A stretch of 64,000 nt of DNA, from NCBI GenBank assembly GCA_965205505.1, contig CBDBHB010000009.1:1632001-1696000 (forward strand), in the 5' to 3' direction. The DNA is from Acidobacteriota bacterium. GTDB lineage: Bacteria; Acidobacteriota; UBA890; WLXD01. The notes under the pieces are model-generated. The model was given only the letters and a program-made list of their open reading frames with translations, was not told where the DNA came from and ran no database searches. The position numbers and the translations under genes were made by a program. Shown here one piece after another: positions 24,966 through 47,916 of this stretch; position 1 is the stretch's first letter, and each line of letters starts with the position of its first letter.

Positions 24966-24990
24966 CTAGTGGCCTGTTACAGGCCACTAG
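24966..24990. repeat. Perfect 25-bp palindrome with CTAG ends (collapsed MITE ends), followed by a partial copy
   Basis: CTAGTGGCCTGT-T-ACAGGCCACTAG, then CCTGTTACAGGCCACCAG. Confidence 0.75.
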
Positions 24991-25174
24991 TCCCCTGTTA
25001 CAGGCCACCAGCGCCTGACGTGTGGTTGGCGGCCGCACGACTGCGCCAGTACCTGGGACGAGGCGGGTTCCTGATGATGCAACCATGGTCGGAGAACAGA
25101 GCCGCGCATCCCGCCACCCGTCCACTAACACGTCGGATGGACAGGTTGCTCGATCCACTGCTCAGGCGTTAGCG

Positions 25175-25507
25175 GTGACCGACGAGCGGGATCCGATCGA
25201 GCGCGCCGAGCGCACCACGATGGCTCAGGACGCGCAACTCGATGCCCAGGAAGTGATCGGGCCCTACCGAATCCTCCAGAAGATCGGCGAGGGCGGCATG
25301 GGCGATGTCTACCTGGCCGAGCAGATCGAGCCCGTGCGCCGCCGCGTGGCCCTGAAGACGATCAAGCACGGTATGGACACCAAGCAGGTCGTGGCGCGTT
25401 TCGAGTCCGAGCGCCAAGCCTTGGCTATGATGGATCACCCATGCATCGCCAAGGTGTTCGACGCCGGAGCAACCGAGAGCGGGCGGCCGTACTTCGTCAT
25501 GGAGTGA
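25175..25507 (+). pseudogene. Ser/Thr protein kinase 5' half (subdomains I-V), interrupted by the integrated element
   Basis: '[16 protein letters not shown]', 'VALK', 'HPCIAKVFD', 'GRPYFVME*'; continues at 40050. Confidence 0.93.
25489..25505 (+). repeat. attL core, 17-bp direct repeat
   Basis: GTACTTCGTCATGGAGT, identical to 40033-40049. Confidence 0.93.
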
Positions 25508-25515
25508 TGACACGC

Positions 25516-25629
25516 TTGACGATTCTTTCTATCCCTTGACGTGGCTTGAACTTACGGGCTGGTGGTATTGACGCTAGTTGCGCCTGTTTGACGCTGTTTG
25601 AACCAAAAATGTCATAGAAAACGTCATCG
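25516..25629 (+). promoter_or_regulatory. Putative attL accessory sites: 10-bp-phased TTG(AC) array plus two arm-type repeats
   Basis: TTG at 25516, 25536, 25546 and 25568, 25578, 25588, 25598; AAAATGTCATAG-AAAACGTCATCG (25606-25629) resembles AAAATGTCAAAG x2 at 39921-39944. Confidence 0.7.
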
Positions 25630-25644
25630 TCCTGCTCACCCCGG

Positions 25645-25790
25645 GCGGCGGAGTGCACCAATGCGCCGCCAGCAGTTATGGAAGCAGCGCTGGCTCATGT
25701 AGCGTGCGAGCCGACGGACACTCTTCGTTCAACATCACGATTGACGTCTACGGCCACCTGATCCCTAATGCGAAGCATCTACTCGACGAG
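25645..25790 (+). pseudogene. Two relict tyrosine-integrase C-terminal fragments
   Basis: 'AAECTNAPPAVMEAALAHV' (P4-like) and, in another frame, 'GHSSFNITIDVYGHLIP'. Confidence 0.6.
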
Positions 25791-26099
25791 GTCGAGAGCC
25801 TCCGTAGGGGATGCATCTACGGGACCTCGTAGACGTCGGCCGGGCGATGAGCCGGTCAATAGCACTAGCGCCATGCCTCTCCGCTGTGGATCTCACCGCA
25901 GCGCCTTCGGCGGCGTTGCAGATCGGTGCAGCGATGCCCAGCGAAACGCGTGGCGAAAGGAAAGGTTTGCAGGCATCGAATCCGATTGGCAAGAACTCGA
26001 CTACGTACGCTACACAGCGGAGCGTCGGGCTGATCGATAACTGATGGCGGTAGCGGAGGGGCGCACGGGGACCTTCCCGTCGACGCCAGCCGTCACTCG

Positions 26100-27422
26100 T
26101 CAGTAAGGCAACGCCTGCCCGATGTCACCCGCAACGGCGGCCATGTACCACCTGATGAACCCTGCCGGCATCACTTTCCCGAGCTCGTGCGTGGCGTAGC
26201 GTCCCGACCGGTAGGCGCCGGAGCAGATCCCGGCGTGGTTGTTCTCGCACAACCAGATGTCCTCAAGGAGCGTAACGAGCCACAACTCCTTCAGCCTCTC
26301 CGGGTCGTAATCCACGTCTCGCTTCGCATTCGGGTGCACCAGCCAGAGGCACTCAACATCGGTGAGGTCGATATCACGGGGCGTGAATCGAACCGCGAAG
26401 ACGTAGTCGTCGTAGCCGAGCCAGTAACTGCTCGACCAACCCGTAGCGGTCTCGCTTTGCGTAACCCTGGTGCGCTTGATGGCGGGAAGCAGCGGTGCCG
26501 CCGGCTTGCCGTCCATCGTGCCGCTGACGTAGTCCTGAGCCCACCATTCCCGTTTTCCGGGCACCGTGAGGTCAGAGCCCGGGTGCACGTGGCAAAGGTA
26601 CTCGTGGGACGGCCCACAGTGGTAGCACTCCAGGAAGTTCTCTAGCGCCAGCTTCCAGTTGGCGTGCATCGGAACGTAGACTCGCTCGCCGACCTTCAAT
26701 TGCGCGGTGCCGTGTCTTTGACCCACCTTGCGACGGAAGGGCTCGACTGCTGAGACGAAGTCCGGCGGTTCCAGCTCTCGTGACAGGTTCACGAAGATGA
26801 AGCCGTCTGCGGTGCGGACGTGGCAGGGGATCAGGCCGTTGTCCGCCGGGTCGAAGTCCTCCTGCATGCCGTAGGCGTACACGAGCTTTCCGTCCAGGTC
26901 GTAGGTCCAGGCGTGGTACGGGCACCGGAACACCGGCGTGTTGCCCGTCTGCTCCAGCTGTCGAACCGACAGGCGGGGATCCTCCGGGATGACGTCGCCG
27001 TCGTGGCGACATAGCCGGGATCCTCGATGTCGGCAGACGTTGTAATAGGCGCGCACCGCGCCGGCGTCGTCGCGCAGGATGATGACGCTCTCGCTGCGAC
27101 CGTACTCGAACACGAAGTAGTCGCCCGGCTCGGCGATCCTGCTGTCGTGATCGACCATGAGCCAGAAATGATCGGCCACTAAACGCTCATCGAACAGGTA
27201 GCGCCCCTCGTCCGTGTAGTACTCCGCGGGGGTGGTCCAGTTTCTGCGCCAACCTTTGGGGTATTTCTGCTCCCCCGGCGGAGCTTCTGTGCTCGTATCC
27301 GGAATCGCCCTGGCGAGCAGTTTGGTCGGGAGTCCGGTGGCGGCCGCGGCGTACGCCGCAACGGCGCTGCGCGCAAGATCACGCCGGCTCGACTTATTGC
27401 CTGTGTTGTCTTTCTTGCTCAT
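26100..27422 (-). CDS. Rieske non-heme iron oxygenase alpha subunit (GbcA / choline-monooxygenase-like) with a Tat-like N-terminus
   Basis: 'CRHRG...CPYHAW' Rieske ligands; 'NWKLALENFLECYHC...H'; 'SRRDLARSAVAA'. Confidence 0.9.
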   Translation of the reverse strand: MSKKDNTGNKSSRRDLARSAVAAYAAAATGLPTKLLARAIPDTSTEAPPGEQKYPKGWRRNWTTPAEYYTDEGRYLFDERLVADHFWLMVDHDSRIAEPGDYFVFEYGRSESVIILRDDAGAVRAYYNVCRHRGSRLCRHDGDVIPEDPRLSVRQLEQTGNTPVFRCPYHAWTYDLDGKLVYAYGMQEDFDPADNGLIPCHVRTADGFIFVNLSRELEPPDFVSAVEPFRRKVGQRHGTAQLKVGERVYVPMHANWKLALENFLECYHCGPSHEYLCHVHPGSDLTVPGKREWWAQDYVSGTMDGKPAAPLLPAIKRTRVTQSETATGWSSSYWLGYDDYVFAVRFTPRDIDLTDVECLWLVHPNAKRDVDYDPERLKELWLVTLLEDIWLCENNHAGICSGAYRSGRYATHELGKVMPAGFIRWYMAAVAGDIGQALPY

Positions 27423-27879
27423 GCCGTTTCCCTCTATCCGCGCAGAACTCCGGCCGGGGACATCGTGCCACTCGACCGGGTGCAGCGCATCGACTTCGTG
27501 TTGCAGTAAGAATAGCTGTAATTAGCATGCACCGGAAATGTGGAGCGAATCTACGCTCTCCCAGAGGGGAGAGGGGGGTCCGTTGCGTTGTTGCATTAGG
27601 GGCCCAAGTGGTCCACTGCGTCAGGGGAAACTAACTAGCAATACGCTGCCGCGGTTATCTTGCGGTGTGTTACGTGTTGCTAGGATCACAAGGGGGTAAA
27701 ACCCTTAAATCCGAGCCTTTTGACGCTGGAGAAGGAGGGCTCGGTTAATCGAAGCGCAATCTGCGGAAATCCGTTGCGCTGTTGCCCCTCACTCGACCGC
27801 AGGAGCCGCCGCGGGCATCGGGGTCGTTCCGATCGCAGGATTGCGAGAAGGTGCAAGGTCATAGTTGGCTCTACACAGC

Positions 27880-28068
27880 GAGGTGACTGACGAGATCCTC
27901 CGCGGTGACCGCGAGCTGGTGCAGACCGTGCGCGGCGACATCACCATCGACTGGACGCTGGGGAGAACGTACGCGGGCACCTCCGCATGCTGGTTAAGCG
28001 GATCCTGCGCCGTTACAGCTACCCGCCCGACAAGCAGGAAAAGGCGACGCGGACGGTGCTGGAAGTAA
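27880..28068 (+). pseudogene. C-terminal remnant of a second type I restriction subunit R (DUF3387-like), frameshifted
   Basis: '[17 protein letters not shown]' then '[28 protein letters not shown]'. Confidence 0.7.
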
Positions 28069-28474
28069 CTGTCGAGGCGCCTGCCTGCTAGGCCCCGTAG
28101 CGCAACCGAGCAACCGCACCGCGCGAGGCGAGCTCACCGTGAGCGTAGCGTGCTGGCATGGTCGGTGAGAGCCACCGACCAGCCTGTTGCATCTCGACCA
28201 GGCCAGCACCAGCGCGGCGCATGGCACGATCCGACAGGCGCCCGCGCACCGTGCCACCCCGGTCGATGCGCTGAAACAGGGGCGCATCGGCTTCGTCGGT
28301 ACCCAGATCTATGGTCAGGAAGACTTCGTCGCCGAGCTGCTCCACGGCGTAAACGGCCACGAAGTTGAGGTGGTTGATCGCCGCCATTGCCCCCGATAGC
28401 CGCACGGGATATTTCTCGTCAGAGACGCCCACCAGCGCATCTACGGGTTCCCAGAGCCCGAACTCCCGTACCCC

Positions 28475-31447
28475 CTACGCAGCTTCGTAGGTGATCGAGA
28501 AGACAGTATCCGTCAGCCACCGGCGGAACGACTCGTTGTCACTGAACTGCTTGAACAGCTCCGTGTCGTCTTTCAGCAACGCCGTCATCACCCGCCGGAG
28601 CGCCTTGTCGTGCTCAATCCGCGCGTTCTGCTTGTCGGAGTTCTGCTTGGCGTTCTGGTAAGCACTGTCGGCCGCCACGCGGTTCGGGATGTCCTCCGTG
28701 ATAAGTCGGTGGACGCGGTCGCCATCGGTCCATGGGATGTTCCCGAACTGGTCGTTGAAGGTCTTGAGGATGTTCGAGAGGCGGTCGAGCTCGGGTTCCG
28801 GCCTGTGGCCAGCGCCGGTACCCGGGACCGGCTCGATCTCGGCCTCCTCGTCCGCCAGTTGGACCTGTCTCGCTGCCTTCTTCTCGACCCGGTAGCTGTC
28901 CATGTCGATGAGCTCAAGAATGCCTTGGGACAGATCCTCTTGCACCGGTGCGGGGAGCTTCGGCACCAGGAAGTTCAGGAAGATAGAGAGCTTCTCCCAC
29001 TCGGCGTTCGTGTAAGGCAGGATCGAGGCCAGAAAGCCGTATACGCGCCCGAACGCCTTGGCCTTGCCCTTGAAGTCCACCTGCCCGTCCTCGTCCAACT
29101 GCTCCTTGTAGACCGCTACGCAGGCGTCGAGGATGGGGTCGAGACGGTCACGGTCAGCCCCTTCCAGGTAGAGCGTCACGAGCTGGTCGATCTGCGCGTC
29201 GGCATACACCTGATAACCGTCGAGCGCCGCCTTGAGGTCGTGCAGCTTGTTGGGGTCCGTCTCCTCGCTGAGGATCGTCGTGCGGTAGTAATCGGCAAAC
29301 GCCTCTTGGATGGCGTCGGCATCGTTCATGAAGTCGAGAACGAACACGTCGTGTTTCTTCGGATGCGCCCTGTTGAGACGCGACAGCGTCTGCACCGCCT
29401 TGATCCCGGACAAGATCTTATCCACGTACATCGTGTGCAACAGCGGCTCGTCGTACCCGGTCTGGAACTTGTCGGCACAAATGAGGAACCGATACGGGTC
29501 GTGCTGGATCTCGTCGGCGATCCGCCCGGAGGGGAAGCCATTCAGGGACGCTTCACTGACCTGCGCCCCGCCATACTCGTGCTCGCCTGAGAACGCGACG
29601 ATGGCCTGATACGGACTCTTGCGCTCCACGAGGTACTGCCGGATCGCGTGGTAGTACTGGATTGCGCGCTGGATGCCGCTTGTCACCACCATCGCGCGTG
29701 CGTTGCCACCGATCTTGTTGAGCGCCAGCACCTGTTCGTGAAAGTGGTCCACCATGATCTCGGCCTTGAGCTGGATGGCATGCTCATGGCTCTCGACATA
29801 GCGGCGCAGCTTCTTCCGGGCGCGCTTGGTGTCGAATTCGGGATCACCCTCGATCTTCTTGATGAGCTTGTAGTAGCTCTCGACCGGCGTGTAGTGCTGC
29901 AGCACGTCCAGGATGAAGCCCTCCTGGATCGCCTGCTTCATGGTGTAGCTGTGGAAGGAGCGGTGCTTGCTCTGCCCGCCCGCGCCGTACGCCTCGCCGA
30001 AGATCTCCAGCGTCTTGTTCTTGGGCGTGGCAGTGAAGGCAAAGTAGCTCGCGTTCGGCAGGAGCTTCCGCGCCGCCATGATGCGGTTGATCCTGTCCTC
30101 GGTGGTCTCCTCCTCCTGCTCGGCGCCCGCCTCCGAGAGCGCCATATGGACCGCCGCTGCGGTCTTGCCGCCCTGGCTCGAATGCGCCTCGTCGATAAGG
30201 ATGGCGAAGCGCCGGCCCCGCTGCTCGTTGCCGATCTCATCGAGGATGAACGGGAACTTCTGCACCGTCGAGATGATGATCTTCTTGCCGCTCTCGATAA
30301 ACGCGCGGAGATTTGCCGAGCGTTCGGCATGCCCGACGGTGGCCCCAACTTGGGCGAACTGCTTGATCGTGTCGCGGATCTGCTGGTCGAGGATGCGTCG
30401 GTCCGTGACCACGATGATGGAGTCGAACACCTCCGCGTCGTCTTTCCGTAGCCCGATCAACTGGTGCGCAAGCCAGGCGATGGAGTTGGACTTGCCGCTA
30501 CCGGCCGAATGCTGAATGAGATACTGCTTCCCTGCGCCGTGCTGGCAAGTATCGGCCAAGAGCCGACGCACCACGTCGAGCTGGTGGTAGCGGGGCCAGA
30601 TCTGCACCCTCCTCTTCTTGCCTGTCTTGTCGTCCTTGGTCTGGACGATCTGGGCGTAGTTCTCCAGGATGTTGGTCAGGCTGTCGCGGGTGAGCAGGCG
30701 CTTCCAGAGGTAGTCGGTCTTGAGGCCATCCGGATTCGGCGGGTTGCCGGCACCGTCGTTGTAGCCCTGGTTGAAGGGCAGGAACCACGAGCCCTTGCCC
30801 TTGAGGTGCGTGCAGAACCGCACCTCGTTGTCATCCGCGGCGAAGTGCGCCACGCAGCGGCCGAACTCGAACAGCTTCTCGCGCGGGTCGCGGTCACGCT
30901 TGTACTGCTGCACGGCATCCTGGACTGTCTGCTTCGTCAGGCTATTCTTCAGCTCGAACGTGGCGACCGGCAGGCCGTTGATGAACAGGCCGAGGTCGAG
31001 CGCGAGCTGGGTTTCGTCACGGCTGTAGCGGAGCTGGCGCGTGACCGAGAAGCGGTTCTGGGCGTAGCGTTCAGTGGCGAGAGGGTTATCGGGAGACGGC
31101 GTGCCGTAGAACAGTTCGACGTGATGCGGCCCGTCTTTGACCCCCTTGCGGAGCACGTCGATGACGCCGCGCTTGCTGACCTCACCTTGGAGGCGCGCCA
31201 GGAACTTCCGGCGCGCTGGCCCGTCGTCTTCCAGGTGCAACCCCTCGAACCCATCCGGTTGCGTTTCGACGAGGAATGCCCGCAGCTGCGCCAGATCGAC
31301 CGTGTATTCCCGGTCGTACTCGTTGGGGTGGCCGCAGATCCATCCGGCTCCGCATGAAGGAGTGGCAGCTTCGCCATCGCAGGCACTGCCGGTCAAGGCT
31401 GTGCAGATCAGCCGTTCGAGTCCGCGTTCGCTCGTGTCGGTTGTCAC
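28475..31447 (-). CDS. hsdR: Type I restriction endonuclease subunit R
   Basis: 'LFINGLPVATFELKN' nuclease motif; 'QHSAGSGKS', 'DEAH', 'FTATPK', 'KFQTGYDEP', 'AVQTLSRLNR'. Confidence 0.95.
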   Translation of the reverse strand: MTTDTSERGLERLICTALTGSACDGEAATPSCGAGWICGHPNEYDREYTVDLAQLRAFLVETQPDGFEGLHLEDDGPARRKFLARLQGEVSKRGVIDVLRKGVKDGPHHVELFYGTPSPDNPLATERYAQNRFSVTRQLRYSRDETQLALDLGLFINGLPVATFELKNSLTKQTVQDAVQQYKRDRDPREKLFEFGRCVAHFAADDNEVRFCTHLKGKGSWFLPFNQGYNDGAGNPPNPDGLKTDYLWKRLLTRDSLTNILENYAQIVQTKDDKTGKKRRVQIWPRYHQLDVVRRLLADTCQHGAGKQYLIQHSAGSGKSNSIAWLAHQLIGLRKDDAEVFDSIIVVTDRRILDQQIRDTIKQFAQVGATVGHAERSANLRAFIESGKKIIISTVQKFPFILDEIGNEQRGRRFAILIDEAHSSQGGKTAAAVHMALSEAGAEQEEETTEDRINRIMAARKLLPNASYFAFTATPKNKTLEIFGEAYGAGGQSKHRSFHSYTMKQAIQEGFILDVLQHYTPVESYYKLIKKIEGDPEFDTKRARKKLRRYVESHEHAIQLKAEIMVDHFHEQVLALNKIGGNARAMVVTSGIQRAIQYYHAIRQYLVERKSPYQAIVAFSGEHEYGGAQVSEASLNGFPSGRIADEIQHDPYRFLICADKFQTGYDEPLLHTMYVDKILSGIKAVQTLSRLNRAHPKKHDVFVLDFMNDADAIQEAFADYYRTTILSEETDPNKLHDLKAALDGYQVYADAQIDQLVTLYLEGADRDRLDPILDACVAVYKEQLDEDGQVDFKGKAKAFGRVYGFLASILPYTNAEWEKLSIFLNFLVPKLPAPVQEDLSQGILELIDMDSYRVEKKAARQVQLADEEAEIEPVPGTGAGHRPEPELDRLSNILKTFNDQFGNIPWTDGDRVHRLITEDIPNRVAADSAYQNAKQNSDKQNARIEHDKALRRVMTALLKDDTELFKQFSDNESFRRWLTDTVFSITYEAA

Positions 31448-31689
31448 ACCGCGGCCTTCTCGGGGGTGGCAAGCTCGTCGCTGTGTTCTTCCTCGCTGTT
31501 GATGAGAACCTCAGCCTCGTCTAGATGCTCGGGCCCCTCGGCCTCATCCGGTAGCCGGGACGCCGCCTCCCGCACGTCGAGCTTGCCGGTGACGACGTCG
31601 GCGATTAGGCGAGTGCGATACTGAGTCAGGTGTTGAATCTGACGTTCAACTGCGTCAGAGGCAGCTGCCAATTTGCTGGCCTTGGAGGT
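31444..31689 (-). pseudogene. hsdS: Type I specificity subunit S, C-terminal remnant truncated by IS3
   Basis: 'QIQHLTQYRTRLIADVVTGKLDVREAA' typical HsdS C-terminus; stop overlaps the hsdR start. Confidence 0.85.
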
Positions 31690-31766
31690 TGACCCAAACC
31701 CCGAAAACGGTGCCAGGTTGATGTTTAGGAAATCGGTGTACCGTCGTCCTCCAAGCAGGAGGACAG

Positions 31767-32033
31767 ATGAAGCGGAAGAGGTACACGGACGAGCAGATCG
31801 CCTACGCGCTGCGGCAGGCTGAGGCGGGCACGCCGATCAAGGAGGTGTGTCGCAAGCTGGGCGTCAGCGAGCAGACGTTGTACACGTGGCGCCGCAAGTT
31901 CGCCGGGATGGGCGTGGCCGAACTTCGGGAGCTACGACAACTCCGCCATGAGAACCGGAAGTTGAAGCAGCTGGTGGCAGATCTGAGCTTGGACAAGCAC
32001 ATGCTCCAGGAGGTGCTGTCAAAAAAGGTGTGA
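31767..32033 (+). CDS. IS3 transposase OrfA
   Basis: '[40 protein letters not shown]' HTH. Confidence 0.95.
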
Positions 32034-32884
32034 AGCCGGCGCGCAAGCGCGAGGTGGTGCGGTACCTGCAGGACGGGTTCCGTGTCAGTGAGCGTCGAGC
32101 GTGTCGGCTGATCGAGTTGTCGCGCACCAGCCATCGGTATCAGAGCACAAGGACGGACGACCCCGTGCTGCGGCGTCGTCTTGGCGAGCTCGCCGCGGCG
32201 CGTCCGCGGTTCGGGTATCGGAGGTTGTGCGTGTTGCTACGCCGCGAGGGATGGGTAGTGAACCAGAAGCGCGTGTATCGGATCTATCGAGAGGAGGGGC
32301 TGGAGGTACGGACCAAAAAGCGACGGCGCAAGCGGGCGAGTCACATACGGCTTGTGCTGCCGCCCGCAGAGCGGCCCAACGAGCGCTGGAGCATGGACTT
32401 CGTGACCGATCGGCTCGAGAGTGGCCGGCCGTTTCGGGTGCTGACGGTGGTCGATCAGTTTAGCCGTGAATGTCCGTTACTTGAGCCGGGCGTGTCGATG
32501 ACCGGCAAGGCGGTGGCTGGAGCACTCGAGCGGCTGTCGTTTGCCGGGCCGTTGCCACGGGTCATCACCGTCGACAATGGCTCAGAATTCTACTCCCAGG
32601 CGATGGACTCCTGGGCGTACCGAAGAGGCGTGCAGTTGGAGTTCATTCGGCCGGGAAAGCCCGTGGAGAATGCGTTCATCGAGAGTTTCAACGGACGGCT
32701 TCGCGACGAATGCCTCAACGCCAACCTGTTCTTCTCGATCGATGACGCGCGCCGAAAACTGGAGGCTTGGAGGCTTGATTACAATACCCACAGACCACAC
32801 AGCTCACTGAACGATCGAACTCCTACGGAGTTCGCCAGGGGCTGGCAACCGGAGGCTTCGGAACACCGAATCCTAAACCTCTGA
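32030..32884 (+). CDS. IS3 transposase OrfB (DDE)
   Basis: 'WSMDFV', 'TVDNGSEF', '[23 protein letters not shown]'. Confidence 0.95.
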
Positions 32885-32957
32885 CTGGTACTGATTTCGG
32901 GGTGGGGTCAAGCACCGAGTTACTGAGATAAGACGTGGTACTAACCGTGGGGTCAGG

Positions 32958-34472
32958 TCAGCTGTACTCGACGTTGTAGCCGGTGAGCGTGAGGTTGCCT
33001 AGGGTGTGCAACCAGGTCTCCTGCAACCGCTGCCACTCCGGGCCGAGTGCCTCACGCCACGTTGCCGAGAGGTTCTGGTTCTGCGGCAGGATGTGCTCGA
33101 TGGTGTACTCGTGCACCGGCACGCGCTCCTTGCGGCCGTAGTTCTCCAGACGGCGCAGCCAGTAGCTCCGACTCCGGAAGTTGTAGAGGTCGCGCTTGGA
33201 CAGCTCGCGCTTGAACTCCTCGTCGAGCGGAAAGCGTCGGTAGGACGGCAGAGCGAGGAAGTGCGCCTGGATGCTCTCGATGTAGCGGTCCTTCTGGAGC
33301 ACACGTCCGAAGGTGGCGAAGGTCTTGTTGAGCGAGTTGGTGAGAATGGCACACACTGCCCGGCGGAACACGTAGGCTTCGACCAGCCGCACGGCCCGGA
33401 CGAAGTCTTCTTTCCGGAGCCGGCCCTGCGCGTAGTCGTCGTATAGCTCCAGGAGGAATGGAAAGGCCACCTCCACCTTCAGCTCGCGGAGATCCTGGAA
33501 CGCTGGCGCGAGGTCCTTGTCAGGCTCCTTGCCGAGCGCCATCGCGCAGTAATAATCAGCGTAGGCGTGGATGTCGGCGACGAGGGCATCCACGCCGGCT
33601 GCTGCTATCTCGGGCGAGTGTGCGTGGCCCTTGAAGGCTTCGTAGACGGCCTTGATGTTCGGGATCTCGCCGGTCTTGAGCGTCAAGTAGTGACGCATGA
33701 AGCGGTCGAAGTGCTTGCCGTAGTGCTCCTGCCCAAAGGCGACCTCCATCGGCCGCCAGTGCTCCTCGTAGAGGCTCGTCTGCTGGGCGGTGTCCAGACC
33801 CATCAGGATGAAGTTGCGGATCAGGTCAGCCTGACTCAGCGCGCGGCCAGTCGAGTTCATGCTCTCGAAGATGAGCTGCGGGTTGTCCTGATCGTGGCTG
33901 AGGGCGATGTCCACGATCATGAGCTTTGCGAGCCCCTTGCACAGCGGCGCAAAGTCGGCCCCGACCGCCTGCACCCGCTTCTCGAAGAAGTCGAAGTTCG
34001 CCATGATGCGGAGCGAGGGCTCGGCCGGCTGCGGTTTCTGCTGCATCAGGGCGAGCAGGCTCTGCTTGTCCGTCTGGGTGAGGAGGAGCTTGAAGCCGCG
34101 CTCGCCCTCTTCCAGCGGGTTGAGCAGATAGTAGCTGCGTAGCTTCTTCGCCGAGAAACCGTCCACCGGCTCCCCGTTACCCACGCGCTTCGCCAGGGCT
34201 TCGAGAATGAGCATCACGGTCGTCAGGCGCTGCTGACCGTCGATGACGAGCAAAACTGACTGGCTAGAGACCTGATAGAGCCCCTCTTCGATGTAGACAA
34301 TGGAGCCGACGAAGTGGGCCGCGATGTCCTCGTTGCTGCCCGTCCGTAGGATGTCGTCCCAGAGTTGACGGCACTCGCTCTCCGTCCAGCTATAGGTGCG
34401 CTGGTAGATGGGGATGACGAACTGTGGTGACTTCTTGAGGAAGTCGAGGAACTTGACTTCGGTGGCCTTCAT
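32958..34472 (-). pseudogene. DUF262/DUF1524 (GmrSD-like) protein, C-terminally truncated by IS3
   Basis: 'IPIYQRTYSW', 'IDGQQRLTT', 'IFESMN', 'IEHILPQ', 'LGNLTL'; the IS end supplies the stop. Confidence 0.88.
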
Positions 34473-35320
34473 CGGGCATTTCCCCCAATGATTTCCTCCA
34501 ACAGTCCGTCCGTTGCCTGCTCCAGCGCCAGGATGTCGGCGCGAATCTCCTTGAGCGAACGCATCGGCGTCGGCTTGTAGAAGTAACGGGTAAAGCTGAT
34601 CTCGTAGCCGATCTTCACGCTGCCCGGGACGTACCAGGCGTCGGCCGCGTAAGGGAGTACCTCGCGGCGCAGGAACGTCTCGACGCCGCCCTGCTCCAAT
34701 AGCGGCACCTGCTCGGTGTCCCGCAGATCGGTGTCCGGCTCGTACTCGACCACGCACTGCTTCTTGCTGATGGTCACCTCGAACAGGCCGACCAGTGGGT
34801 TGGGTTCAACGCCTCGCTTGTGGATCTTCTTGATGACGGGCGGTGCACTCTCGTCCCGCTCGGCGGTCTCCTTGAGGGCCTTGATCTCCTTTGCCGCGTA
34901 GGCTCGGTCGGGGTCGGTCCCCGTGAGCCGGAGGGGTCGCTCGACCTTCACCTTCCGGTACCCGAAGGCGGCGTTCGGGAAAATCTTGGACTGCTCGGTC
35001 TCCTCGAAGGCCAGGAACGCGTCGCAGATGCGGGTGATGTCCTCTTCGGACAGCTCGCAGTTCTTCTTGCCCAGGTTCTTGCGCAGCGGCTTGAACCACT
35101 GCGTGGCGTCGATGAGCTGGACCTTCCCCCGTCGATGGGCAGGTTTTCGGTTCGTCAGCACCCAGATGTAGGTGGCGATGCCGGTGTTGTAGAACATGTT
35201 CAGCGGCAACGCGACGATCGCCTCCAGCCAGTCCTTCTCGATGATCCAGCGGCGGATGTTGCTCTCTCCCTGCCCGGCGTTGCCCGTGAACAGGGAGCTG
35301 CCGTTGTGGACCTCGGCAAC
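34469..35320 (-). pseudogene. hsdM: Type I methyltransferase subunit M, C-terminal half only
   Basis: 'AEVHNGSSLFTG', 'LPLNMFYNTGIATYIW', 'KIGYEISFTRYFYK'; the NPPY-containing N-half is absent. Confidence 0.9.
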
Positions 35321-36053
35321 GGGAGTCTCACTACTGGTATGCAGCCACACCTGTGCCGCAGTCCAAGAAGTATGTGGGCGTGGACGGCCAATGCCTGGTA
35401 GAGCTTCGCAGCGACCGGCAGCAGACGATGGTCCCACCGTCGATTCATCCGGGCGGGGAACAATTGGAGTGGGACGCGTCCGACGCGCCTGCAAAGGTGG
35501 ATGGCCAAAGTCTATGCGACAGTGTCGCTGCTTTGGCGGCCGCCACTGTGTTGACCCGTAGTTGGCCCCGAGAAGCCGGCAGCAGACAGGAGTTGGCGCT
35601 CGCCGTCGCTGGTCTTCTCGGGTACGGCGGTGTGCCGATCGAGCTCGCTCAGCAGATCATCGGCTGTGCAGCACGATTTGCTGGAGACGAGGAGTGGCAG
35701 AAGCGACAGGACGCCGTTCAGCCTACCTACGAGAAGCTTGCACTCGATGACCCCGTGACGGGGGGACCAACCGTCGAGACACTGCTGCCGTGTGGCGATG
35801 AGATCGTGCCGAGGCTGCGCGGCTGGCTCGGACTACGAGCAGGCGAGTCTGCTGAGTCACGTGTTGACAGCTGGCTCGAGGCCCACGCCAACAAGGACAA
35901 CGCCGACGTGCAGGAAATTCTCCAGCCTCTATCCGAGCTGCAGCCGTTAGCGTACGAGCAGGTTCGGGAGCAGGTCAGCAAGGTGGCGAGTGTCCGTATC
36001 GGTGTGCTTGATGAAGAAGTCAAGAAGCTTCGGGTCACGCCCGCAGCTACCAA
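35320..36053 (+). pseudogene. Bifunctional primase/polymerase-like protein, 5' part (N-truncated, interrupted by IS3)
   Basis: 'SHYWY...VELRSDRQQTMVPPSIHP'; joins 37319 in frame once the IS and one CCAA copy are removed. Confidence 0.75.
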
Positions 36054-37314
36054 TGACCTGACCCCACGGTTAGTACCACGTCTTATCTCAGTAACTCGGT
36101 GCTTGACCCCACCCCGAAATCAGTACCAGTCAGAGGTTTAGGATTCGGTGTTCCGAAGCCTCCGGTTGCCAGCCCCTGGCGAACTCCGTAGGAGTTCGAT
36201 CGTTCAGTGAGCTGTGTGGTCTGTGGGTATTGTAATCAAGCCTCCAAGCCTCCAGTTTTCGGCGCGCGTCATCGATCGAGAAGAACAGGTTGGCGTTGAG
36301 GCATTCGTCGCGAAGCCGTCCGTTGAAACTCTCGATGAACGCATTCTCCACGGGCTTTCCCGGCCGAATGAACTCCAACTGCACGCCTCTTCGGTACGCC
36401 CAGGAGTCCATCGCCTGGGAGTAGAATTCTGAGCCATTGTCGACGGTGATGACCCGTGGCAACGGCCCGGCAAACGACAGCCGCTCGAGTGCTCCAGCCA
36501 CCGCCTTGCCGGTCATCGACACGCCCGGCTCAAGTAACGGACATTCACGGCTAAACTGATCGACCACCGTCAGCACCCGAAACGGCCGGCCACTCTCGAG
36601 CCGATCGGTCACGAAGTCCATGCTCCAGCGCTCGTTGGGCCGCTCTGCGGGCGGCAGCACAAACTCGCCCGCTTGCGCCGTCGCTTCTTGGTCCGTACCT
36701 CCAGCCCCTCCTCTCGATAGATCCGATACACGCGCTTCTGGTTCACTACCCATCCCTCGCGGCGTAGCAACACGCACAACCTCCGATACCCGAACCGCGG
36801 ACGCGCCGCGGCGAGCTCGCCAAGACGACGCCGCAGCACGGGGTCGTCCGTCCTTGTGCTCTGATACCGATGGCTGGTGCGCGACAACTCGATCAGCCGA
36901 CACGCTCGACGCTCACTGACACGGAACCCGTCCTGCAGGTACCGCACCACCTCGCGCTTGCGCGCCGGCTTTACACCTTTTTTGACAGCACCTCCTGGAG
37001 CATGTGCTTGTCCAAGCTCAGATCTGCCACCAGCTGCTTCAACTTCCGGTTCTTATGGCGGAGTTGTCGTAGCTCCCGAAGTTCGGCCACGCCCATCCCG
37101 GCGAACTTGCGGCGCCACGTGTACAACGTCTGCTCGCTGACGCCCAGCTTGCGACACACCTCCTTGATCGGCGTGCCCGCCTCAGCCTGCCGCAGCGCGT
37201 AGGCAATCTGCTCGTCCGTGTACCTCTTGCGCTTCATTCGTCCTCCTGCTTGGAGGACTACGGTACCCCGATTTCCTAAACATCAACCTGGCACCGTTTT
37301 CGGGGTTTGGGTCA
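36054..37314 (-). mobile_element. IS3-family element, copy 2 (inverted), 4-bp CCAA target duplication, orfB frameshifted by a 10-bp deletion
   Basis: Near-identical to 31690-32960; CCAA at 36050-36053 and 37315-37318; lacks CACATACGGC. Confidence 0.95.
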
Positions 37315-37318
37315 CCAA

Positions 37319-38690
37319 CACCATCGGAACCGCTGTTACCTGGCAACAGATCGAGCCGTGGCCGCATCCCGTTTCGGCAGGTGAGTTGGCGGACGATCTG
37401 GTCAAGATATTCGACACCTATCTGGTGATGCCGAAAGGAGCGGCAGAGGCAGTCGCGCTTTGGGTGCTGCATGCTCACGCTCATGATGCATCAGAGGTAT
37501 CGCCCATTCTCGCGATCACGTCGCCGGAGAAAAGGTCGGGAAAGACCACGTTGCTGGAGCTGATTCAGGAAATTGTCCCCCGCCCCTTTCCGGCGAGCAA
37601 CGTCAGTACCGCTGCAGTGTTCCGTTCTGTCGAGAAGTGGAGGCCGACCCTGCTGATCGACGAAGCCGATACATTCCTTAATGATCGCGAGGATCTGCGC
37701 GGTGTTCTCAACAGCGGTCATCGTCACTCGATGGCGTTCGTCATCCGGACTGTCGGGGAGGATCATGAGCCTAGGAGCTTTGAGACGTGGGCTCCAAAGG
37801 CGATCGCGAAGATCGGATCATTACCCGACACTCTGCATGATCGGTCGATCGTGATTCCGATGCGTCGGAAGAGAACGGACGAATCGAAACGACGATTGCG
37901 AAGAGACCGCCTTGCCTCAGAGTGCAGCGGGCCCCTTAGACAAGCAGCGACGTGGGCCGAACAACAACAGGAGGATCTGCGGCAGCGCGACCCGATGCTT
38001 CCCGAGCAGTTGCATGACCGTGCTCGCGACAACTGGCGCCCGTTGATTGCGATCGCGGACTCCCTGGGCGGTGATTGGCCGCAACGGGCACGCACAGCAG
38101 CGCTGGGTTTGTCTGGAATCGTGGCTCCCGAGGAAGAATCGATCAGGGTACAGCTCCTCGAGGCTCTCAGGAGGGTCTTCACGGACTCTGACGCAGACAA
38201 GCTCCCGAGCCGGGATATTGTTGAGCAGCTCGTACTCATGGAAGACGGACCGTGGGCTGAATACCGAAGGGGCAAACCGATCACTCCGGCTCAAGTAGCG
38301 AGGTTGCTTCGCCCTCATGGGGTTCGTCCCAAGGACATCTGGATTGCGGATGGCCACGGGGGTGGGCGGACACTCAAAGGCTACGAGCTAGCTGCCCTTC
38401 AAGATGCCTTCGGCCGGTACCTACCACCCGCCGATGCGCAAGAGCCGCAAGAGTCAGTAGCCGGCGGTGCTTATGGGGATGAGACACACCGCGAGGATGA
38501 GTCGTTCATCGCGGGCAACGGACAGGGTGAATTCCCCGACCTGGAGGGGGGTCTTGCGGCTCTCGCGGCTAGAGAGGCCGCCGAGGACAAAACAGAAACC
38601 TCTGAACAAGACAAGTGTGAGAGGTTTACAGATCAGCCTCCCATCCCTCCCAAGTCTCCGGACCATCCTTATCCAGGAGGTTTGGCATGA
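37319..38690 (+). pseudogene. DUF3631-type primase-associated NTPase, 3' part of the IS-split gene
   Basis: 'EPWPHPV', 'SPEKRSGKTTLL', 'PTLLIDEADTF', 'LPDTLHDRSI', 'DRARDNWRPL'. Confidence 0.8.
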
Positions 38691-38878
38691 GTACAACCTC
38701 CGAATATCTCTCAGTCGATCAGGTGGCCGAAGTGCTGCATCTCAGCCCCGGCACTATCTATCAGTACACATCGAAGCGTCGAATCCCGTTCATCAAGTTC
38801 GGTGGAAAGCTCCTTTTTGAGTGGGAAGAGATCAAGGAGTGGCTCCACGAGCACCGGCAGGAGGTTCGAGATGCCTAA
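38687..38878 (+). CDS. Excisionase / HTH_17 DNA-binding protein
   Basis: 63 aa 'YLSVDQVAEVLHLSPGTIYQY....IPFIKFG..LLF...I.EW'; overlaps the integrase start. Confidence 0.85.
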   Translation: MSTTSEYLSVDQVAEVLHLSPGTIYQYTSKRRIPFIKFGGKLLFEWEEIKEWLHEHRQEVRDA

Positions 38879-40313
38879 GAAGCTTCCGAAGAACATCCGC
38901 CGTGTTGGGCGTCGTTTCATGGTCGACAAACAGATCGACGGCACACGCTACCGGGAGACGTTCCGCACACTGCCGGCGGCGGTGGTGTGGCTCAACGACC
39001 TGAATCTCCGCGCTCTCACGGGGCACAAGGAACGGACCACGGGTCGAGTTGCGATCCGAGCGTGGATCGAGCGCTCGATGCGATGGACGCGCGCTGAAAA
39101 GGCCTCGAGCACGGCCGACAACTACAAAAACGCCCTGAGGAAACTGGAGGAGTTCCTGCGGACAACGGCAACGGAGGTCACCCACCTGGACGAGCTGACA
39201 CCGGCCGTACTGGAGGAGTTCAAGCTGCACCGGTTGGGCAGCCCGAGCGGTCGAGGCGGAACCCTTAAACCGACGACAGTGAATCTGGATCTCAGGTTGA
39301 TCGGCACCGCCCTGAAGCGATCCGTTCGGCTGGGTGAGATTGACGACAACCCTATGGCGAACGTCGAGCGCCTTGCCGTGAGGTCAAGACCCCCGAGGTA
39401 TCTGTCCGAGCGCGAGGTGGCCCTGTTGCTTGATGCGGCGCCGGACAAGGACCGACCGCTGTATGCGCTGCTGTACTACACGGGGTTGCGCATTGGAGAA
39501 GCCTTGCACCTGCAGTGGAAGGACATTGCCTGGCCTTCCCGTTGCATCATCGTGCGGGGCAAGAAGGGCTGGGATCCGAAGACCGGCGGCTCGCGAGCCG
39601 TTCCACTGCACCCGGATCTGGAGGTCCACTTGCAGGACGTGCCGGTGCTGGGTGAGTGGATATTCGCCCATGCCGACGGCCAAAGGCGAGCCTACGATGG
39701 AGTCGACGCTGCCTTCAGACGCCTGACCCGGAAGTTGGGGATCAAGGGGGCGAGCCTGCATACCCTGCGGCATACGTTCGCGAGCCACCTGGTGCAGCAG
39801 ACCGGGGATATCCGGGCAGTACAGGAGCTACTGGGCCACAGCGACCTGCACCAAACGATGGTCTACGCGCACACCTCAAGCGAGCAACTGCATAAGCAGG
39901 TGGCGAAGCTGCCGACGCCGAAAATGTCAAAGAAAATGTCAAAGGACTCGGAGCTGGAATCAGGATCCGTCGAGAAGTCCTTTAACTACAGCGAGTTGGA
40001 AAGAGTGGGCGCACCGGGATTCGAGCCTGTGAGTACTTCGTCATGGAGTATGTACAAGGGATTCCGATCACCGAGCACTGCGACCGCAACCGTCTCAGCG
40101 TACGACAGCGCCTGGAGTTGTTTCAGCGAGTGTGCGCGGGCGTTCAGCATGCCCAACAGAAAGCGATCATCCACCGGGACATCAAGCCGTCGAACGTGCT
40201 CGTGGCGATTCACGACGACGAAGCGGTTCCGAAGATCATCGATTTCGGCGTCGCCAAGGCGACAGCCCAGCGGCTCACTGAAAACACCGTGTTCACCGAG
40301 CTCGGACAGCTGA
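38871..40313 (+). CDS. Tyrosine recombinase/integrase; the ORF reads through attR
   Basis: 'YTGLRIGE', 'PKT', 'HTLRHTFASHL', 'LLGHSDLHQTMVYAH'; the catalytic set appears intact. Confidence 0.95.
   Translation: MPKKLPKNIRRVGRRFMVDKQIDGTRYRETFRTLPAAVVWLNDLNLRALTGHKERTTGRVAIRAWIERSMRWTRAEKASSTADNYKNALRKLEEFLRTTATEVTHLDELTPAVLEEFKLHRLGSPSGRGGTLKPTTVNLDLRLIGTALKRSVRLGEIDDNPMANVERLAVRSRPPRYLSEREVALLLDAAPDKDRPLYALLYYTGLRIGEALHLQWKDIAWPSRCIIVRGKKGWDPKTGGSRAVPLHPDLEVHLQDVPVLGEWIFAHADGQRRAYDGVDAAFRRLTRKLGIKGASLHTLRHTFASHLVQQTGDIRAVQELLGHSDLHQTMVYAHTSSEQLHKQVAKLPTPKMSKKMSKDSELESGSVEKSFNYSELERVGAPGFEPVSTSSWSMYKGFRSPSTATATVSAYDSAWSCFSECARAFSMPNRKRSSTGTSSRRTCSWRFTTTKRFRRSSISASPRRQPSGSLKTPCSPSSDS
39921..39944 (+). 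repeat. Tandem 12-bp repeat, putative integrase arm-type sites
   Basis: AAAATGTCAAAG x2, with a matching pair at 25606-25629. Confidence 0.75.
40033..40049 (+). repeat. attR core, 17-bp direct repeat
   Basis: GTACTTCGTCATGGAGT, identical to 25489-25505. Confidence 0.93.
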
Positions 40314-42238
40314 TCGGCACGCCAGAGTACATGAGTCCCGAGCAAGCGGAGATGAGCCAGCAGGATGTCGACACCCGGACGGATGTTTACGCGCTCGGCG
40401 TGGTGCTGTACGAGTTGCTCGTCGGGGCGCTGCCCTTTGACGCGCGGGAGCTGCGCCAGGCGGGGCTGATCGAGATTCACCGCAGGATCCGCGAAGACGA
40501 GCCATCCAAGCCCAGCACGCGGGTAAGTGGTCTCGGGGATGCGTCGATCGCGGCCGCGGCGCGACGACAGACCGACCCTCTGGCGCTAGTGGGCGAGCTG
40601 CGTGGTGATCTTGACTGGATCACCATGAAGTCGCTAGAGAAAGACCGCACGCGCAGGTACGGCTCACCGGCGGAGTTGGCGGCAGATCTCAGAAGGTACC
40701 TGGCGGACGAACCGGTGGAAGCGACGCCGCCCAGTGCCACCTACCGGATGCGCAAGTTCGTGCGCCGCCACCGCATTGGGGTGACAGCCGCAGCGACCCT
40801 GGTCGTTCTGTTGATCGCGTTCGGGGCGTCAATAAGCTTGCAGGCGGCGCGCATCGCCCGCGAGCGCGACCGAGCCAACCGCGAGGCCGAGACGGCGCAG
40901 CGGGTGTCTCAGTTCATGAGCGGGCTCTTCCAGGTCTCGAATCCGAGCGAAGCTCAAGGTAATGCGGTCACCGCCAGAGAGATTCTCGATCAGGGCGTTG
41001 CCAGCATTCGCGGGGACCTGGACGATCAGCCGCTGATCCAAGCGCAGCTTCTCGACACCATGGGCAACGTGTACTCGAACCTAGGGCTCTACGAGGCGGC
41101 GCTGCCGCTTCTCGAGCGTGCGCTGTCGTCGCGCGCCGAGCTGCTCGGGGACGATGATCCGCAGACGCTGACATCGAAGGCGCACTTGGTTGCACTGCAC
41201 AATGAGCGCGGGCGGTTCGAGACCGCCGAGCAGCTCGGCGAGAAGGTGCTCGCGAGCCGGCAGCGTGTCCTGGGAGAGCAGCACCCGGACACCATCGAGT
41301 CGATGCGCGAGTTGGCGCTTGCCTACAACGGTCAAGCTCGGTATGGCGAGGCGGAGGATCTCCTGCGGTCGACGGCGGCGGCAAGCGCGCGGGTTCTGGG
41401 CGAAGGTCACCCGGATACGCTTCGTTCGATCCTCAGCCTCGGGGCGCTGTTCCAGAACCAAGGGAGGTTTGACGAGGCCGAGGTGCTCACCCGTGATGCC
41501 CTCGAGGTAGCACGGCGCACCGACGGTGGGGACCATCCGATGACCCTCACTCTGGCCCACAACCTCGCCTCGATCTCGATTAGTCAGGGACGCTACGGCG
41601 AGGCCGAGACACTGGTGGCCCAGGTGCTCGCCGATCGGCGCCGAGTGCTGGGTGAGGAGCACCGATACACGCTTACCTCTGAGTACGTGCTGGCGCTGTC
41701 GCACTTCTACCGCGGCCAGTACGACGACGTCGTGGCGATCCTGGAGCCGAGCGTCGAGAGGGCTCGCCGCTCACTCGGCGAGGATCACCCCGACACGCTG
41801 GAGTCGATGAGCCTGCTGGGAGAGGCCTATCGGGAGATCGGACAATACCGCGCCGCCGAGCCTCTGCTCCGTACCGCGTTGGATCTACGTCGCCGCGCGC
41901 TAGGCGAGGACCACCTTCGTACCCAGTGGTCTATATACAACCTGGCTTCTTTGTACCGGGACGAGGGGCGCAACGACGAGGCCGAGAGCCTCTACCGGCA
42001 GACCCTCGAGATCGAGCTCCGCGTGCTCGGCGAGGACCACCCGGAGACAGCAGACACTGCCTATCAACTGGCCCGCCTCGACGCTCGCCGCGGCAATGTG
42101 CTCGCCGCCCTCGAATGGCTCCGACGGGCGCGGCGCTATGGGTTCCCCGTTATCGAGACCTTGATGGACGAGCCGGACTTCGAGTCGCTTCGCGACGATC
42201 CGCGGTTCGCGCAGATCGCCACCCAGCTCCGGCAGTAG
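40043..42238 (+). pseudogene. Ser/Thr kinase-TM-TPR protein, 3' half of the split gene
   Basis: 'MEYVQG', 'HRDIKPSN', 'DFG', 'GTPEYMSPEQ', 'DVYALG', TM helix, repeated 'LG..HP.TL' TPR units. Confidence 0.93.
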
Positions 42239-42268
42239 AGCCTCGAGATCCTCGGGGCGGGACCCAGC

Positions 42269-43297
42269 TCAGCGCTTGATGTGCTTCCTCAGCGCCTGCG
42301 GCCCGACCTCGGCACCGTAGACGTTCCCCATGGAGTCGACGGCGACCCCCTCGGCGGCGCTGGTTCCCAGGTTGTCCTGATCGGGTTCCGGATCGGGGAT
42401 AAATGCGGTCACGAAGCCGTCGGTGACGCTGCCGATGCGGATGCCGCGCTTCCAACCGGGGTTGGTGCTCGAGTTGGATTCGGAATCGGCGGAATACATC
42501 ATGTCGTTGGCATCGATATACAGTCCGCTGGGTCCACCGAACTGCGTCCAGGTCGCGAGGTGTGTTCCATCCTGGTCGAAGACCTGGATACGGCGGTTTC
42601 TACGGTCGCCGACGAACAGGCGCCCCTGAGAGTCCATCGCCAGGGCATGCGGGTCTCTGAACTCACCCGGGCCATGCCCGGTCTGTCCCCATGCCTTGAT
42701 GAAGGTTCCGTCGCTCGACAGCTTGACGATCCGGTTGTTGCCATCAGCCCCATGGCCGTCGGCGACGAAGATATCGCCGTTGGGGGCCACCAGCACGTCC
42801 GACGGCTGGCGGAAGGTATCCTCGCCGTCGCCGGCGATGCCCTTCTTGCCCAGCGTCATCAGCAGGTCGCCGTCGGCACTGAACTTGTAGACGACATGCC
42901 CCAAGCCCTCCGGCGGCTCGCCGAAGCCGACCGCGTCGGTGACCCAGACGTTGCCCTCGGAGTCGACGTGCATGCCGTGCGGCCAGGCGAAGAGACCGTC
43001 GCCGCCGAAGCTCTTGAGCACCGCTCCCTCGGGCGAGTACAGGAAGATCGTCGACATGTCCGTGCCGACGCACGTGTTGGCACCTCAGCGCTCGGCCACC
43101 CATATGTTCACACCATCGAGGGCAGGGTAGACGGCGCTGGTGGCGCCCCACTGCCTGCCGTCGGGGAGCTGGGCCCAGACGCCCTCGACGGTACGGTAGG
43201 GGTTGGGAGAGCTGTTCTGAGCCCCAGCGTTTGCTAGGGCGCCCGAAACCACCAGGATCGCCAGTAATCCGAGACCGATGCGGGGTAGACGGGTCAT
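42269..43297 (-). CDS. Secreted NHL-repeat beta-propeller (PAL-like) with an in-frame TGA at 43085-43087; candidate selenoprotein
   Basis: The two listed ORFs are in one frame and read 'IWVAER*GANTC'; NHL repeats 'PHGMHVD..GNVWVTD', 'PSDVLVAPNGDIFVADG'. Confidence 0.85.
43049..43070 (-). promoter_or_regulatory. Putative bacterial SECIS hairpin
   Basis: CGUCGGCA-CGGACA-UGUCGACG starts 14 nt after the UGA; G at loop position 2. Confidence 0.55.
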
Positions 43298-43527
43298 CGC
43301 AGATCCTCCAGGCAAAGGTGGCACCGAACGATGCGCCATCCTAACCGGTCAGGGCTCCGTCGTCGCCTTCGTCGGGATGACCGTGGGATGTTCCTGCCCC
43401 AGCCGCGGGTGTGCGCCGAACAGAATCGACAGGAGCCAAGTCCGCGGTGGCAAGGATGGCGGCGAGCGTTGCCCAGCGCGGTACCTCGGCCCCTAGCGAC
43501 AGACGGTCGGTTGCCGGTGAGAGCGCA

Positions 43528-44004
43528 TCAACGTTGATCGGCGCGCTCCTCGAAAGGGCCCTCGATGAGGATCTGATCGAGCTGCGCTGCGTCGTTGCCC
43601 ATGTCTTGTTCACCGACTGGTGAGCCGTTGACACGAAGCAGGTAGGCAACGATGTCGGAGTACTGCTGCCGGCTCAGATCGCCGGGATTATCCTCCGGCA
43701 TGGTCGCGCTGATAAAGTCGAAGAGGGCCCCGATCGGCTGACCTTCCCACCCGCTCATGTATTCGGCGCCGAACTCCGTCATGTCGTGGCAGTAGGTGCA
43801 GACGCGCTCGTAGAGAGCCTGGCCCCGGCCAGCTTCGTGGCTCGAGTACACACCGTCGCGCGTAGATCGGTTGCCCGCGCTCGCCGGGATCTGCGGTGCT
43901 TCTGCGGCCAGGCCGACCGACACTGGCACTACGGCGAGCGCAGCCAAAGCCGCTACCGCAAGTGTCGCGGCGGGCCAGCAGGGTCGAAGGGCAGCATCAG
44001 ACAT
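43528..44004 (-). CDS. c-type cytochrome
   Basis: Signal peptide, 'CTYCH', 'MPEDNPGDL...Y.DIVAYLL'. Confidence 0.9.
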   Translation of the reverse strand: MSDAALRPCWPAATLAVAALAALAVVPVSVGLAAEAPQIPASAGNRSTRDGVYSSHEAGRGQALYERVCTYCHDMTEFGAEYMSGWEGQPIGALFDFISATMPEDNPGDLSRQQYSDIVAYLLRVNGSPVGEQDMGNDAAQLDQILIEGPFEERADQR

Positions 44005-44019
44005 CCGGCTCGATCGCCA

Positions 44020-44177
44020 GCAACCCCCACGCGCCCAACGGGTTACGGCGTCGTGGAGCCATCTGCAGCGTTGACCCTCCTGGACGATACGACAAGCATC
44101 GCCTGCGTCGCGCCGCCTTGCATCTGGCCCCACGACGCCGTAACCAGACCCACCAGAGTTCTTCAGCACCCTGCTAG
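44020..44177. mobile_element. One-ended copy of the 59105 MITE-like element
   Basis: Reverse complement CTAGCAGGGTGCTGAAGAA..GGTGGGTCTGGTTACGGCG..GATGCAAGGCGG..CAACGCTGCAGATGG aligns with 59105-59265. Confidence 0.8.
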
Positions 44178-45331: not shown

Positions 45332-45357
45332 CCCTGTCTTCTCCCTCGTAGCCGGGC

Positions 45358-47890: not shown

Positions 47891-47916
47891 CCCTGTCTTC
47901 TCCCTCGTAGACGCGC

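Follow-up and report, generated by a model that had tools for sequence, protein, structure and literature searches.

A kinase gene split at its hinge codons

The window analyzed here, a 64,000-nucleotide stretch of the genome of an Acidobacteriota bacterium (C9:1632001-1696000), contains a gene for a serine/threonine kinase with TPR repeats that is split in two by an integrative island of 14,544 bp. The N half of the gene, which encodes the N-lobe in 110 codons, lies at 25175-25507 on the forward strand and its product ends in ...GRPYFVME. The C half, which encodes the C-lobe, a transmembrane (TM) segment and the TPR repeats in 731 codons, lies at 40043-42238 on the same strand and its product begins with MEYVQG. 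A 17-bp direct repeat, GTACTTCGTCATGGAGT, is present in two exact copies at the junctions between gene and island: the core copy at attL (25489-25505) and the core copy at attR (40033-40049). When up to two mismatches were allowed, the repeat had three matches in the window against none expected from shuffled sequence; the third, a near-match at 16004, lies inside a cupin-like open reading frame (ORF) and is irrelevant to the island. Across the 5.98-Mb genome the exact 17-mer occurs at the two junction sites only. Base composition also sets the insert apart, with a G+C content of ~0.60-0.63 within it and ~0.65-0.66 outside.

Removal of 25506-40049 in a script yields 2520 nt with one terminal stop, encoding an 839-aa Hanks-type Ser/Thr kinase with a TM segment and TPR repeats. 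The stop codon that closes the N half (TGA, 25505-25507) is composed of the last base of the core and two bases of the island. The Pkinase profile of Pfam is divided between the halves, the N half covering profile positions 1-78 and the C half positions 77-212, the latter followed by TPR_12/TPR_10, and the kinase motifs VALK, HRD, DFG and TPEY are legible in the kinase sequences. The island carries no replacement sequence for the kinase. A preliminary description of this DNA, made from its letters alone, had reported the 17-bp repeats, the 839-aa frame of 2520 nt that excision would give, and the splitting of a Ser/Thr kinase-TPR gene into halves free of stops and frameshifts; the repeats and the rejoined frame were both re-derived, the complementary Pkinase halves agree with the splitting, and both frames were found open. 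Upstream of the gene, ~170 nt before the kinase start, a 21-nt unit with the palindrome GGCCTGTTACAGGCC occurs twice in tandem (24966-25007) and may be an operator or terminator.

Integrase, excisionase and the tRNA-Val ancestry of attP

At its right end the island encodes a tyrosine integrase (38871-40313, forward strand) with matches to Phage_integrase (E 2e-31) and SAM_5. In an alignment of nine sequences, all invariant columns are present in this protein: the Arg of box I, the Lys, HxxR, the His of LLGH and the Tyr. The frame lacks the usual stop and runs on to 40313, across the arm repeats, a tRNA-like stretch and the core and then 264 nt into the kinase region. Of eight integrase relatives, seven end ~15 aa past the catalytic Tyr; in the eighth and closest, P0002 (49% identity), the frame likewise carries on as a tail, across an antisense tRNA-like stretch. 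Because of this similarity, the read-through may be a trait of a small clade. Immediately upstream of the integrase gene, and overlapping its first bases, lies a gene for an excisionase-type HTH_17 protein of 63 aa (38687-38878, forward strand; PF12728, E 7e-13). A 90-aa ORF near the left end of the island was also considered as the excisionase and was rejected, as it has no family hit and the HTH_17 ORF fits instead. The preliminary description had taken int, xis and the att sites to be intact; this holds for the att sites, for the HTH_17 protein and for the catalytic residues of the integrase, but needs qualifying for the integrase frame, which has no normal stop.

Relatives of the integrase are distant. 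In a collection of 5.8 billion proteins the best match has 49% identity over 47% of the query and the next 38%, the best identity in 41 related genomes is 40%, and in 401 genomes sampled from the phylum it is 36%. A scan of a genome contig collection gave 21 loci at 24-41% identity. The preliminary description had proposed a search for homologous integrases beside kinase genes split at PYFVME; only distant relatives were retrieved, and a kinase piece was found at 0 of 32 loci. A tRNA gene is located in the fetched flanks of 17 of the 32 distant-relative loci.

The island arms and the core allow attP to be reconstructed. The first bases of the P' arm (25506-25640) finish a perfect 5-bp dyad, GTCAT-N6-ATGAC, which is formed from the last bases of the core and the first bases of the island. 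This arm contains two arm-type repeats (25606-25615 and 25618-25627), and a motif search placed two further repeats of the same type, AAAAYGTCAW, in the P arm at 39921-39942. The motif has 4 matches in the 64 kb of the window, all within the two arms, where 0.06 would be expected; each arm bears a tandem pair ~100 nt from the core, and all four copies are in the same orientation. This arrangement is that of a lambda-type attP, and the arm repeats are putative binding sites of Int or Xis. A second set of repeats in the P' arm, TTGACGNT, is not enriched (10 found, 6.1 expected).

The attP of the island descends from a tRNA-Val(CAC) gene, a point that the preliminary description had overlooked. 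Within the P arm, positions 39943-40032 on the reverse strand are a decayed copy of the 3' part of this gene with its trailing sequence, 78% identical over 90 nt to the tRNA-Val(CAC) gene of the same genome (C8:930852-930925) plus downstream sequence and 79% identical to the tRNA-Val locus of the sister genome G004. On the other side of the core, the first ~16 nt of the P' arm align with the D/anticodon-stem part of tRNA-Val. The reconstructed attP as a whole scores 112 against the tRNA-Val(CAC) locus, while the next best of 55 tRNA genes scores 38; the alignment extends from the D arm to ~60 nt beyond the 3' end, and the core lies where the anticodon loop and variable region would be. The core 17-mer itself is missing from the tRNA-Val loci found in 26 genomes of the order. 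The P-arm copy received no tRNA call from ARAGORN or Rfam, the latter giving only a chance match; one base of its T-loop is changed and its would-be anticodon loop has 6 nt. With 78% identity and tRNA features lost, the copy is therefore unable to rebuild a working tRNA. The 64-kb window contains no tRNA gene, and attB consists of the hinge codons of the kinase and not of a tRNA or tmRNA gene.

Filled and empty alleles and the fate of the kinase

In a protein collection, one 90% cluster holds three members of this kinase. P0241, found on 4 contigs, is an intact kinase of 839 aa; P0121, found on 2 contigs, has a contiguous junction and is 767 aa long from an internal start; and P0242 is the 731-aa C half of the window itself. 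P0241 differs from the halves of the window at 4 of 839 residues, none of which falls in the N half (109 of 109 residues identical), and filled and empty alleles are known from strains ~99.6% identical. We also compared the contigs of four runs (X1, X15, X18 and X20) with positions 37320-46000, which include the attR side only. In run X15, probably the source of the window, a contig of 3616 nt bridges attR with 0 differences. The corresponding contigs of X1 (1703 nt), X18 (1712 nt) and X20 (5632 nt) agree with the C half as far as 40033 exactly, the first base of the attR core; the further 729, 1540 and 1540 nt that they carry beyond it match no part of 37320-40032. The differences of the X18 and X20 contigs at 40156, 41352, 41372 and 41865 correspond to the four residues that distinguish P0241, which identifies these contigs, by their sequence on the C-half side of 40033, as the intact allele. 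Over the int/DUF3631 side of the island, depth is ~0 in X18 and X20; in X1 it is 2-3.5, where the chromosome has 7-9. Such gaps are no proof of absence and carry no weight here. The island is also present in a second assembly: in P0127, encoded on an 18.5-kb public contig, the tail of the integrase continues into the C half of the kinase. This sequence has three or more single-base indels in ~2 kb, two of them traced to base runs; the resulting frameshifts were read as probable assembly errors rather than as a biological signal, and nothing was drawn from them.

A kinase ortholog is present in 4/4 same-genus genomes, with 90, 83, 69 and 68% identity to the C half. In all four of these sister species the halves are contiguous and overlap by exactly the 17-mer, a single copy of the core is found between the same neighbors, and the island is missing from the orthologous site. 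The ortholog of G003 (L016, G003:C2:135606-140780) carries a one-base frameshift in the N-lobe; this frameshift and the internal start of P0121 may reflect repeated loss of the kinase or assembly errors, either of which may apply. Within the order (26 genomes), 11 occurrences of the 17-mer were counted, distributed over 7 genomes. Two of the occurrences are the window's own pair; the other nine comprise four orthologs, four paralogous kinase genes and one place in G008. Two copies 14.5 kb apart are found only in the genome of the window among these 26. A scan of metagenomes with a 31-nt stretch composed of N-half sequence and core returned one contig, L023 (match at 1653-1683). As an empty-site strain this contig was rejected, for it contains an unrelated intact kinase, 69-77% identical, that merely has the same 31-mer. 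Because L023 carries this 31-mer, the attachment sequence is available in kinases well beyond the genus.

The C half shows nine differences from other strains, which were polarized by the sister species; one clearly derived synonymous and one derived non-synonymous change belong to the lineage of the window. The non-synonymous change, CAC to CAA at 40156, replaces His146 with Gln. This position is 8 residues before the catalytic Asp and is His in 119 of the 120 homologs with a locatable HRD (122 retrieved), the sole exception being the split copy of the window; we take His146 to be the equivalent of the conserved helix E His in PKA. P0127 retains the ancestral His146, and since this sequence comes from an assembly with the island, Gln146 postdates the insertion. 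The replacement is one substitution of the kind that a gene freed from selection would show.

At E <= 1e-10, 34 Pkinase matches were counted in the genome, and the nearest paralog of the split kinase is 54% identical in the N half and 38% in the C half. At least four other kinase genes are truncated or frameshifted (C9:1791217-1791762, C9:1417642-1417893, C8:566719-566991 and C9:755436-755903), which points to a kinase family that is generally eroding in this genome. The truncations in these genes fall after the hinge or the DFG motif, and two of the genes run into beta-propeller-like sequence. A one-base deletion at the hinge of the paralog C9:1791217-1791762 was considered as a scar of excision; the gene has a second frameshift and was therefore treated as an ordinary pseudogene.

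Cargo decay and interpretation of the insertion

The cargo of the island is largely broken. Nothing matching its leftmost 580 nt was found among the 26 genomes of the order or elsewhere in the same genome. A gene for the alpha subunit of a Rieske/ring-hydroxylating oxygenase follows (26100-27422, reverse strand; PF00848 and PF00355); its family has at least 25 partial or complete DNA matches in the same genome at <=79% identity, and many more paralogs in the sister genomes at <=86% identity. The HsdR subunit of a type I restriction system is open over 990 aa (28475-31447, reverse strand; HSDR_N, SWI2_SNF2/ResIII, T1R_D3). Next to it lies what we take to be a C-terminal remnant of hsdS (31448-31689, reverse strand), labeled from a conserved C-terminal motif in its translation rather than by family search, and cut by the first of two copies of an IS3-type insertion sequence (IS). 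This copy 1 (31690-32960, forward strand; rve, rve_3, HTH_21) forms an inverted repeat with copy 2 and lacks a target duplication, and the genes on its two sides are unrelated, which suggests an IS-mediated deletion. On its far side, a GmrSD gene (DUF262/DUF1524; 32958-34757, reverse strand) with a complete GmrSD_N and positions 2-92 of 138 of GmrSD_C is cut C-terminally at the IS. An hsdM fragment (34472-35656, reverse strand) matches only positions 176-279 of 311 of the N6_Mtase profile. The primase gene begins with a 5'-truncated Prim-Pol part (35290-36053, forward strand), for which the match is weak (profile 94-153 of 158, E 7e-4, under the curated cut-off), and is interrupted by IS copy 2 (36054-37314, reverse strand), after which the frame resumes in the DUF3631 part of a primase/helicase-like gene (37315-38690, forward strand; PF12307, E 1.4e-43). 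With CCAA on both flanks and a primase frame that continues across, copy 2 is a simple insertion. Profile coverage and IS flanks bear out what the preliminary description said of the primase, hsdM, hsdS and DUF262 genes, namely that they are broken. The genome holds ~20 copies of this 1271-bp IS3-type element; identities of 98-99.9% among most of them suggest that it expanded recently.

Two further segments of variable sequence were seen downstream of the kinase gene. The X1, X18 and X20 contigs skip 44786-45951 (1166 nt), which has 18 nt common to both ends and an 84%-identical copy at 47345-48507, as if paralogous repeats had given rise to an indel at the strain level. At 43990-44279, all four runs show a contig depth 5-10x that of the neighbors, and 44048-44152 is skipped at a contig joint; the segment is probably a multi-copy or variable repeat.

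We read the locus as a recent, strain-polymorphic insertion of the island that would have knocked out one of ~34 kinase genes, and not as a built-in switch, and we put the probability of this reading at roughly 0.55. The 14,544-bp island, by means of its own tyrosine integrase, would have recombined into the hinge codons of the kinase gene (PYFVME), the exchange taking place within the 17 bp of identity common to attP and the gene. Insertion would then have parted the N-lobe from the C-lobe and created the stop that presumably abolishes the kinase, after which IS elements and deletions would have eroded the island and the split kinase would have begun to decay. Since the attP core now matches the kinase codons, we are inclined, with some reservation, to take the kinase site as the matched attachment site of the island in this species. 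Several observations weigh against this account. Int, Xis, the core and the arm sites all look usable, and both kinase halves are still open frames, as would also be expected of an active excisable element. The attL region has word shares of 0.82-0.89 in X1, X18 and X20, where an island-free strain could reach at most 0.60, so both alleles may coexist in these samples. Only one substitution speaks for decay of the kinase. The ratio of non-synonymous to synonymous substitution rates (dN/dS) of the rejoined gene against G004 is 0.18, inside the range of the other, intact pairs (0.13-0.21), and indicates no general relaxation, although the time since the insertion is too short for dN/dS to reveal one. 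With G001 as outgroup, the branch of the window has a dN of 0.026 and a dS of 0.092 (ratio 0.28) and the branch of G004 a dN of 0.020 and a dS of 0.164 (ratio 0.12), ratios that say little because most of the window's branch predates the insertion. Finally, chance may account for the 17-bp match: a 17-mer in common with the genome minus its island turned up in 224 of 20,000 shuffled versions of a 41-nt attP segment (1.1%) and in 1168 of 20,000 first-order Markov 41-mers (5.8%).

These chance rates of 1.1-5.8% lend some weight to another, rather doubtful account, in which an element that targets tRNA-Val landed once and by accident in a secondary site resembling its core. Its attP arms are a copy of tRNA-Val(CAC), the closest relative of its integrase, P0002, likewise has a frame that crosses an antisense tRNA-like stretch, and 17 of the 32 distant relatives have a tRNA gene in their flanks. 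Against it, the tRNA-like arm is only 78% identical to the tRNA-Val of the genus, has no ARAGORN or Rfam call and has a changed T-loop base, and the core is missing from the tRNA-Val loci of the 26 genomes; with the arm decayed and the core not that of tRNA-Val, an accidental secondary site becomes less likely. The 17 bp in common here can further be set against the ~7 bp that tyrosine integrases need according to PMC10111431. The same paper describes tRNA-targeting islands as carrying a replacement tRNA sequence in attP. The present island resembles such islands in having int at its end with the 3' end facing the att site, in an attP with a copy, here degraded, of the 3' part of a tRNA gene and a core at the place of the anticodon stem-loop, and in distant relatives beside tRNA genes; it differs in having an attB outside any tRNA gene, a tRNA copy too decayed to function, and a core that matches kinase codons.

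The preliminary description had favored a domesticated element that switches the kinase on by excision, and had named a recent, neutral insertion into a redundant paralog as the alternative. As a reversible switch, Int and Xis would excise and re-integrate the island, and cells or sub-populations would toggle the kinase off and on, in the manner of phi10403S in Listeria comK, the Sa3int phages in hlb or the Vibrio mutS element. We consider this unlikely. Judged from the letters, reversible excision is mechanically possible: the 17-bp repeats are perfect, excision would restore the frame exactly with both halves open, neither the catalytic residues of the integrase nor the HTH_17 protein nor the arm repeats show damage, very few substitutions separate the filled from the empty alleles, and the word shares of X1, X18 and X20 suggest island DNA amid a mainly empty haplotype. 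The runs may be mixed natural populations, however, so coexistence of alleles is not proof of excision. An island that is missing in 4/4 sister species and in near-identical strains is not conserved, related integrases lie at a kinase in 0/32 loci, the replication and defense genes are decayed and the integrase frame has no normal stop. Selection for a usable kinase should also have purged Gln from a position where His is kept in 119/120 homologs. These observations speak against domestication, and the roughly neutral insertion into a redundant paralog that was named as the alternative fits all of them.

A narrow search of the literature did not find a kinase as the split gene, and known systems resemble the locus in part. 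The skin element in sigK and the heterocyst nifD/fdxN elements are lineage-fixed elements whose excision takes place in terminally differentiated cells. They share with this island the restoration of an interrupted gene by recombinase excision, which here would be potential, and differ in that this island is polymorphic among near-identical strains and missing from sister species. Phage phi10403S in comK, Sa3int in hlb of S. aureus and SPbeta in spsM of B. subtilis likewise interrupt a gene without replacing it and restore it by precise excision; these are prophages with demonstrated, condition-dependent excision, whereas here the island is small, phage-less and of decayed cargo. A mobile element of mutS in Vibrio splendidus 12B01 and other Beta- and Gammaproteobacteria lies in the codons of a conserved motif, and its excision rejoins the gene; elements recur at this motif in hundreds of bacteria, excision was measured, and the integrated element supplies a promoter and start with which mutS still works, according to PMC5296598. 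Both are non-phage integrative elements inside a protein-coding gene at conserved-motif codons. In contrast to the mutS element, the island is found in one lineage, has no relatives at kinases and appears to knock its gene out, and excision is predicted from sequence.

To a further reading we give little credence: that the integrase lineage has been retargeted from tRNA-Val to the PYFVME codons, remains competent in Int and Xis, and inserts reversibly in natural populations, turning the kinase on and off. The 17-mer is identical in 4/4 sister orthologs and recurs in paralogous kinases of the family, and it is conceivable, at similarly long odds, that protein constraint and codon bias hold the hinge sequence constant as a target. 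A misjoining of the island into the kinase gene during assembly has no observation in its favor and is highly improbable, for the window lies inside a contig of 3.17 Mb, the independent X15 contig crosses attR without a difference, int is fused to the C half of the kinase on the separate public contig (18.5 kb) as well, and the junctions bear the exact duplication expected of site-specific integration.

Taken as a recent, strain-polymorphic insertion, the island would add no new kind of gene regulation at present. The locus points instead to gene loss of the ordinary kind, the genome having ~20 copies of one IS and numerous kinase paralogs under erosion. It offers a clean natural case of an integrative island with a protein-coding motif as its attachment site, and with filled and empty alleles both known at ~99.6% identity, the system is suited to a direct test of excision and integration. 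What is new here is that an attP of tRNA-Val descent now matches the hinge codons of a kinase, and an attP in which descent from a tRNA gene is still visible bears on how integrases switch targets.

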